A stretch of DNA of 64,000 nucleotides from Escherichia coli (GTDB lineage: Bacteria; Pseudomonadota; Gammaproteobacteria; Enterobacterales; Enterobacteriaceae). Under the pieces are notes generated by a model, which was not told the DNA's origin, searched no databases, and saw only the letters and a list, made by a program, of their open reading frames with translations. Positions 63,577 to 63,758 of this stretch are shown piece after piece. The stretch lies in the NCBI RefSeq assembly GCF_003334815.1, contig NZ_QOWO01000006.1. The stretch is one strand, 5' to 3'. Numbering within the stretch: position 1 is the first letter of the stretch; the number at the start of each line of letters is the position of its first letter. A program made the translations under genes and the position numbers.

Positions 63577-63758
63577 AGCCGTTGCCTGATGCGACGCGTA
63601 ATGCGTCTTATCAGGCCTACAGTGAACAGAACCGTAGGTCGGATAAGGCGTTCACGCCGCATCCGACAGCCGTTGCCTGATGCGACGCGTAATGCGTCTT
63701 ATCAGGCCTACAGTGTACAGAACCCCAGGGCGGATATGGCGTTCACGCCGCATCCGAC
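63577..63758. repeat. tandemly duplicated BIME/REP cluster (two ~90-bp units)
   Basis: CAGCCGTTGCCTGATGCGACGCGTAATGCGTCTTATCAGGCCTACAGTG(A/T)ACAGAACC...GCGTTCACGCCGCATCCGACA occurs twice in tandem. Confidence 0.85.

Follow-up and report, generated by a model that had tools for sequence, protein, structure and literature searches.

We analyzed a 64,000-nt stretch of Escherichia coli DNA (NCBI RefSeq assembly GCF_003334815.1, contig NZ_QOWO01000006.1), hereafter the window, and focused on the spacer between trmJ and iscR, which carries a tandem array of repetitive extragenic palindromic (REP) sequences. The array is a bacterial interspersed mosaic element (BIME) of the BIME-2 class and consists of two 91-bp units, each made up of a Z2 REP, a short linker, and an inverted Y REP. 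Combining its anatomy with a genome census and with published gyrase and transcript data, we regard the array most probably as a mobile or recombining repeat serving as a gyrase site on the DNA. On the trmJ mRNA it probably forms a structured 3′ untranslated region (3′ UTR) that attenuates read-through and may dampen translation. The array itself is ordinary, and the preliminary description of this DNA, which had recognized it as a strain-variable REP array, is essentially right. It was already known: the array is listed as a BIME-2 in K-12, and variation in unit number from strain to strain is documented for the class (PMC3333891).

Alignment placed the window as the reverse complement of approximately 2.662-2.726 Mb of the K-12 MG1655 genome, with 99.945% identity. 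The differences from MG1655 comprised 13 single-nucleotide polymorphisms (SNPs), two 1-nt indels, a 15-nt insertion in hcaD, and one 91-nt array unit fewer in the window. The gene names yfiE, glyA, yphB, trmJ, and iscR were confirmed by this alignment together with the MG1655 annotation, and the annotation of trmJ is the same in K-12 and in all matching genomes.

Tandem Repeats Finder reported an array at 63575-63759 with a period of 91, 2.0 copies, 94% matches, 0 indels, and a score of 335. A repeat search of the window likewise returned two 91-nt copies arranged head-to-tail, at 63575-63665 (unit A) and 63666-63756 (unit B), with 95% identity. The preliminary description had placed two tandem REP units of about 90 bp, differing at a few positions, at 63577-63758; these coordinates were right to within 2 nt, and the two units differ by five mismatches, at 63625, 63634, 63635, 63639, and 63646. 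The first base of the array is also the third base of the trmJ stop codon, and its end lies 178 nt ahead of the iscR start codon. Most of the 8-nt gap CAGCCGTT that separates the stop codon from the first REP stem reappears as the 7-nt junction linker between the units (63668-63674).

REPs, imperfect palindromes of 30-40 nt, were typed by fuzzy matching of the Y, Z1, and Z2 consensus sequences across the entire window. For Z1 and Z2 we used the queries of PMC11208160 minus their trailing G; between our Y string and the Y query of that study, the differences are a leading T and a single loop base. This typing yielded eight REPs with 0-4 differences from consensus, and a ninth (63725-63758) was found through a hairpin pattern. 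Every REP locus in the window is extragenic and lies 3′ of stop codons: the array separates the tandem genes trmJ and iscR, and the other loci sit between convergent ones. Within the array, the tetranucleotide CTAC follows both Z2 REPs, GTAG precedes Y REP no. 1, and an internal stem mismatch is present in all four elements. The four consensus differences of Z2 REP no. 1 are all in or beside the loop. Y REP no. 1 is a GTCGG...CCGAC variant in which a consensus C-G pair has become T-A. Y REP no. 2 is degenerate: its GTAG has changed to CCAG and one stem pair is broken (G.A), leaving a weaker hairpin (pair string |x|||||x:||||).

BIME-2 has been defined by alternating Z2 and Y REPs, a short linker, and tandem copies (PMC3333891), and the trmJ-iscR array shows every sequence-level feature of REP and of BIME-2. 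It is tandem and has neither a Z1 REP nor the L motif, features that set it apart from BIME-1. An Rfam search further returned a match to naRNA4 (Table 1) over the full length of the model, with 72.2 bits against a gathering score of 59.5; the minus strand scored 37.6 bits. The naRNA4 model was built on the Y/Z2 unit of the REP325 array and is in effect a generic Y-linker-Z2 module, so this match only restates the BIME-2 identity.

The array also accounts for spurious open reading frames (ORFs). One ORF on the minus strand (63042-63662, 206 aa) begins MRRERLIRPT, and another (63652-63792, also minus) contains MRRERHIRPG. Both are artefacts because they arise from minus-strand translation of a Y REP, as had been suspected for the MRRERLIRPT series; the ORF at 63042-63662, considered as a real gene, was rejected since it starts inside the Y REP and runs antisense to all of trmJ. 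Recognition of the array is therefore of practical value in annotation, where it explains ORFs such as MRRERLIRPT.

Table 1. Features of the trmJ-iscR spacer and of the other REP loci in the window
Feature	Position	Strand	Remarks
trmJ coding sequence (tRNA Cm32/Um32 methyltransferase)	62835-63575	+	246-aa ORF; stop TAA 63573-63575
BIME-2 unit A, 91 nt	63575-63665	+	Unit found 1, 2, or 3 times in longer arrays
BIME-2 unit B, 91 nt	63666-63756	+	Terminal, iscR-proximal in every multi-unit A/B-type array read
Gap CAGCCGTT, 8 nt, trmJ stop to first REP stem	63576-63583	+	Read from sequence
Z2 REP no. 1: GCCTGATGCGACGC-GTAAT-GCGTCTTATCAGGC with CTAC tail	63584-63620	+	4 differences from Z2 consensus
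S-type short linker of unit A, 13 nt: AGTGAACAGAACC	63621-63633	+	Joins the two REP tails; read from sequence
Y REP no. 1, inverted relative to Z2	63634-63667	-	5′ GTAG on + strand; 2 differences from Y consensus
Junction linker, 7 nt	63668-63674		Between units A and B
Z2 REP no. 2	63675-63711	+	Identical to no. 1
Short linker of unit B, 13 nt: AGTGTACAGAACC	63712-63724	+	
Degenerate Y REP no. 2	63725-63758		Found by hairpin pattern
Rfam naRNA4 (RF02564) match	63637-63708	+	Y hairpin of A, junction linker, Z2 hairpin of B; sense of trmJ mRNA
iscR start	63937-64000	+	Window ends within gene
BIME-1, convergent yfiE/srmB	11762-11859	+	Y REP 11762-11795, L linker 11796-11830, inverted Z1 11831-11859
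BIME-1, convergent glyA/yphH	41928-42025	+	Y REP 41928-41961, L linker 41962-41996, inverted Z1 41997-42025
Solitary Y REP, convergent yphB/yphA	52334-52367	-	No CTAC/GTAG tail; hairpin -22.9 kcal/mol

The preliminary description had also held that repeat copy number is strain-specific. A census of 5,426 complete E. coli genomes at the four REP loci of the window bore this out, and the trmJ-iscR spacer was found with 0, 1, 2, 3, or 4 units. Query coverage could not split one-unit from two-unit alleles, as overlapping alignment pieces were joined and the one-unit query still gave 3,313 genomes; exactly two units were counted with a strict E-value cut that only a full-length two-unit alignment could pass. 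One or two units were present in 3,313-3,314 genomes, of which 665 had exactly two by this cut and, by subtraction, about 2,649 had one. Up to three units were present in 3,973 genomes, so that by subtraction 659, K-12 and E. coli B included, have three. A further 1,433 genomes carry no REP and have a different 124-nt sequence in its place, and the remainder (about 20 genomes) show other spacer states; among these are strain 600055, with four units, and strain UTAK-6, with an IS621 insertion.

When we read individual alleles, the order of units was A-B in the window, A-A-B in K-12 and E. coli B, and A-A-A-B in the four-unit array of strain 600055. Among the single-unit alleles, that of D9 consists of unit A and that of ET729 of unit B, and several others are more divergent; strain N96 carries an independent, divergent two-unit array. 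The K-12 derivative J53-p131 has two units, yet it is identical to MG1655 over 20.2 kb of flanking sequence; either a three-to-two change occurred inside the K-12 lineage or one unit was collapsed during assembly.

The 1,433 REP-less genomes include O157:H7, O111, and O26. Their replacement sequence, read at the locus in strain 1919D62, is an unrelated G+C-rich palindromic stretch of approximately 124 nt that is allelic to window positions 63570-63758. It begins within the last codons of trmJ (...GCC TGA versus ...GCC GAA TAA), which makes TrmJ one residue shorter. This sequence is itself a dispersed repeat, present at a median of 17 places per genome. It resembles boxC, a name that stays tentative; it gave no credible match in Rfam, and a palindrome pattern for boxC-like repeats had no match in the window. 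Two unrelated repeat families, and occasionally IS621 (described below), thus alternate as occupants of the spacer. At the other three loci, the yfiE-srmB BIME-1 was present in 2,525/5,426 genomes (the empty allele is 176 nt shorter) and the glyA-yphH BIME-1 in 1,933/5,426 (134 nt shorter when empty), while the Y REP between yphB and yphA is nearly fixed (5,293/5,426).

The arrays that we read all differ from one another in entire units, with unit A the only one to be multiplied. Gain and loss of units probably result from recombination between misaligned 91-bp copies, which are nearly identical, or from slippage during replication. If misaligned A and B units cross over within their first 50 identical bases, the products are A-A-B and a lone B; a crossover within the last 19 bases leaves a lone A. 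Both of these single-unit products exist, in ET729 and D9, respectively. A REP-associated transposase (RAYT, TnpA-REP) may also contribute. Binding and cleavage by TnpA-REP need the GTAG tetranucleotide and the stem mismatch (PMC3333891), and unit A, the multiplied one, keeps the required GTAG. We did not accept RAYT as a demonstrated cause, since a crossover in the first 50 identical bases yields the same A-A-B order; the data fit both routes and do not separate them. Stem substitutions among the alleles keep the pairing, with one compensatory change from C-G to T-A and several G.U pairs, and the internal mismatch is always retained. This pattern fits either selection on the hairpins or homogenization by other REP copies.

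At the DNA level, the array would be a preferred site of gyrase binding and cleavage, as shown for its K-12 allele. BIME-2 elements are preferred DNA gyrase sites, and a published Topo-seq table lists, for the BIME-2 "iscR-yfhQ" (265 bp), three cleavage sites with ciprofloxacin, six with rifampicin plus ciprofloxacin, none with microcin, and four with oxolinic acid, whereas most BIME-2 rows have zero gyrase sites in the parts of the table considered here (PMC6379681). These sites show that gyrase cleavage of the three-unit K-12 allele is independent of transcription. By extension from this allele, the two-unit array of the window is probably a gyrase cleavage site as well.

The array also contains the target of a mobile element. 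The native target of IS621 is the 11-nt sequence ATCAGGCCTAC, which has a CT core (PMC11208160), and exact copies occur four times in the window: at 63610-63620 and 63701-63711, in the two Z2 REPs of the array, and at 11831 and 41997, in the two Z1 REPs. Each Z2 REP is thus a ready-made insertion target. In strain UTAK-6, IS621, an element of the IS110 family with a bridge-RNA recombinase, is inserted exactly at the ATCAGGCCTAC of the Z2 tail, with the junction ...ACAGTAT|CT|ACAATG. This insertion shows that the target is used in nature at the trmJ-iscR locus.

At the RNA level, the array is entered in the sense orientation by trmJ transcription only. The trmJ transcript would run into the array, where four stable hairpins are predicted to form, with folding energies in order of -21.4 (z -6.5), -17.4 (z -4.9), -21.4, and -14.6 (z -2.4) kcal/mol; the fold of the whole array has -96.2 kcal/mol (z -6.4). 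None of the four REP hairpins (0/4) is followed by a T run, and a consensus scan of 63400-64000 found no intrinsic terminator on the + strand. With no hairpin followed by a U tract, the array is not an intrinsic terminator. The same scans gave no sigma-70-like promoter in 63400-64000, and the array was accordingly rejected as a candidate for containing either kind of signal.

In published data, a bicyclomycin-sensitive Rho termination region, scored from 800-nt windows, peaks at K-12 2662135 (minus strand), four bases upstream of iscR, with a Rho score of 3.06 and p = 3e-9 (PMC7815308). The REP325 array, the best-studied one with this architecture, has been shown to be a partly Rho-dependent terminator that stabilizes the upstream mRNA and does not organize the nucleoid (bioRxiv 10.64898/2026.03.23.713779), and Dar and Sorek found that transcripts ended by Rho are trimmed as far as stable hairpins, REPs among them. 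By analogy, the hairpins together with Rho would limit read-through from trmJ into iscR, and they would protect the trmJ mRNA from 3′ exonucleases. From these data we infer that the array probably limits trmJ-to-iscR read-through and may protect the trmJ mRNA. A further effect could concern translation. Translation is reported to be lowered by REPs located <16 nt from a stop codon (Liang et al. 2015, cited in PMC12306157). In trmJ, the stem of the first REP follows the stop codon after a gap of 8 nt, inside this range, and for this reason translation of trmJ could be somewhat lowered. Such effects on trmJ and iscR expression, along with any dependence on copy number, are to be read as expectations from the sequence and from these parallels.

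Several observations weigh against the reading of the array as a gyrase site and a read-through-attenuating 3′ UTR. None of the stable 3′ ends listed by Term-seq under three growth conditions falls inside the K-12 array (PMC7815308), so that strong 3′-end protection at the locus is unsupported by that data set. The only Term-seq 3′ end labeled trmJ lies 60 nt into the ORF, at about position 62895 of the window (K-12 2663263, minus strand); it was very strong in all three conditions, with a score of about 2e5, and suggests premature termination or processing early in trmJ. The Rho score could reflect a change of the iscR promoter after bicyclomycin rather than trmJ read-through. The Y REP of unit B is decaying, and the two-unit state of J53 could be an assembly collapse. 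Finally, a quarter of the genomes (1,433) carry the unrelated repeat and about half have a single unit; with such wide variation of the spacer, any function of the array must tolerate variation and may be dispensable. The earlier suggestion that the repeats affect transcript 3′-end stability keeps its conditional form: the Term-seq data show no 3′ end within the K-12 array, though a Rho-dependent termination region is reported there.

One alternative is that the array is selfish or neutral repeat DNA occupying a permissive spot after trmJ, whose copy number drifts by slippage, unequal crossing-over, or RAYT activity and whose protein binding and structure are incidental. The range of spacer states, from 0 to 4 units or an unrelated repeat with trmJ and iscR intact throughout, speaks for this alternative, as do the loss of GTAG and of one stem pair in the Y REP of unit B, the simple presence/absence polymorphism at both BIME-1 loci, and the fact that no stable 3′ end has been reported in the array. 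It sits less easily with the cleavage of the array by gyrase in vivo, which increases when transcription is blocked, with the hairpin-preserving substitutions among alleles, and with genome-wide and REP325 data in which REPs bias upstream versus downstream expression (bioRxiv 10.64898/2026.03.23.713779). We regard a purely selfish or neutral array as possible though short of probable, and as largely compatible with the explanation favored here, in that an element of selfish origin may have incidental local effects.

A second alternative gives the array a mainly translational role, in which the terminating ribosome stalls at the first REP, trans-translation follows, and TrmJ is lowered; copy number would then be irrelevant because only the first REP matters. 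The geometry agrees with this proposal, as the stop codon occupies 63573-63575 and the REP stem begins at 63584, within the <16-nt rule quoted in PMC12306157, and the same stop-to-REP distance was found in all REP-bearing alleles read. The allele of the 1,433 REP-less genomes, however, alters the last codon or two of trmJ and its stop codon and removes the REP altogether, so the arrangement is not conserved. We regard a mainly translational role as possible though less than probable. Finally, that the array is a naRNA4-like small RNA gene, whose transcript would be processed into discrete two-hairpin Y/Z2 RNAs of about 77 nt that cooperate with HU in bridging cruciforms and condensing the nucleoid, is very improbable: the Rfam match lies in the transcribed sense, and in the original report any RNA containing two hairpins of this kind is claimed to work with HU (PMC4550694), but the model fits any Y-linker-Z2 module, the Term-seq list contains no processed RNA from the trmJ-iscR spacer, and a 2026 study that shares S. 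Adhya as co-author with the original report found nucleoid volume unchanged by deletion or over-expression of REP325 and no REP-REP contacts in Hi-C, leaving the nucleoid role of naRNA4 disputed (bioRxiv 10.64898/2026.03.23.713779).

The favored explanation, a recombining BIME-2 with gyrase and read-through effects, has a bolder extension, in which the allelic series (0-4 units or the unrelated repeat) sets gyrase recruitment upstream of the iscR promoter, trmJ read-through, and trmJ translation. We consider this extension improbable. If it were true, the recurrent changes by whole units would provide fast and reversible tuning between a gene for tRNA modification and the isc operon, and J53 versus MG1655 would be a possible example of such a change within one lineage. 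Should copy number alter iscR read-through or local supercoiling, the locus would be a convenient natural test case, because K-12 strains that look isogenic and carry two or three units exist. The discovery value of the array is small, as REP and BIME elements have long been described; what the present analysis adds is the separation of two BIME classes in the window, the four-locus census, the alternative occupant of the spacer, the IS621 insertion, and the link to the gyrase and Rho data.

The separation of BIME classes concerns the elements downstream of yfiE and glyA, which the preliminary description had regarded as REP pairs related to the array through a conserved internal motif. The motif itself stands. 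The 18-nt sequence CAAATTCAATATATTGCA occurs exactly twice in the window (11805-11822 and 41971-41988) against a chance expectation of 0.10 with <=3 mismatches, and each copy is flanked by a Y REP and a Z1 REP that match their consensus perfectly. This shared internal motif is the L linker of BIME-1. Both elements have Y and Z1 REPs with 0 mismatches to consensus, a 35-nt linker, and a single copy, and they are 91% identical over 141 nt, with the likeness reaching short flanking motifs. The grouping of the array and the yfiE and glyA elements into one family was therefore rejected, since the array lacks the L motif and its REP partner is Z2 rather than Z1; the former is BIME-2 and the latter are BIME-1.

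Within the 18-nt core of the L linker, ATTCAATATATTG fits 8 of 9 specified positions of WATCAANNNNTTR, which we take to be the consensus for IHF. The L linker of BIME-1 is reported to carry an IHF site frequently (PMC3333891). In Rfam, where the L linker corresponds to ES036, the yfiE copy scored 49.9 bits against a gathering score of 37.6, and the glyA copy, with 34.2 bits, fell below it. The published Term-seq 3′ end of glyA corresponds to a terminator hairpin downstream of the BIME-1, and the element is thus certainly part of the glyA 3′ UTR. Between yfiE and srmB lies a hairpin that resembles a two-way terminator shared by both genes; where the BIME-1 is absent, its sequence is AATAATGCCGGGCTTAAACCCGGCATT. 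It occurs twice in the window, at 11706-11732 and 11885-11910, flanking the BIME-1 on each side, which indicates that the 176-nt "insertion" includes a diverged duplicate of its target.

The single REP noted after yphB is the Y REP at 52334-52367 on the minus strand. The 47-nt gap between yphB and yphA (52328-52374) is essentially this one hairpin, with 9 nt to the yphB stop and 6 nt to the yphA stop; each of these distances falls in the range for which effects on translation have been reported. In CFT073, the same gap has 112 extra bases.

Elsewhere in the window, the insertion in hcaD (53597-53611) adds 15 nt in frame relative to MG1655, as three copies of CTGCG that lengthen a run of this pentamer, and is absent from J53-p131. 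Rfam matches above the gathering score were obtained for AsrC (18305-19136, minus), rncO (21919-22133, plus), OhsC (25546-25622, minus), and GlmY (34802-34949, plus), as expected for a K-12-like region; one SNP relative to K-12, at 25580, lies inside the OhsC match.

We finally compared the trmJ-iscR array with known systems. It shares with BIME-1 elements, including the RIP and RIB forms, the REP superfamily and the Y REP, and differs from them in having Z2 instead of Z1, a 13-nt linker instead of the 35-nt L linker, no IHF-like motif, and a tandem arrangement. Like REPIN/RAYT systems, in which a domesticated Y1 transposase mobilizes REP doublets, it has an inverted REP pair, GTAG, and the stem mismatch, and the unit that has multiplied is the GTAG-bearing unit A; in contrast to them, no RAYT gene is located in the window, and the A-A-B order arises equally from unequal crossing-over. 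The REP325/naRNA4 array (yjdM-yjdN) resembles it in alternating Z2 and Y REPs between tandem genes on the same strand and in being transcribed from the upstream gene, and the partly Rho-dependent terminator and stabilizer role of REP325 fits the Rho region at trmJ-iscR; REP325 has 12 hairpins as against 4 here, and the naRNA4 model has a junction linker 6 nt longer than that of the present array. The closest counterpart is the K-12 BIME-2 listed between iscR and yfhQ (trmJ), which has the same locus, Z2 and Y REPs, linkers, and flanks. The K-12 array has three units (6 REPs) and that of the window two (4 REPs), with the spacer otherwise identical; removing one A unit from the K-12 array gives the array of the window.

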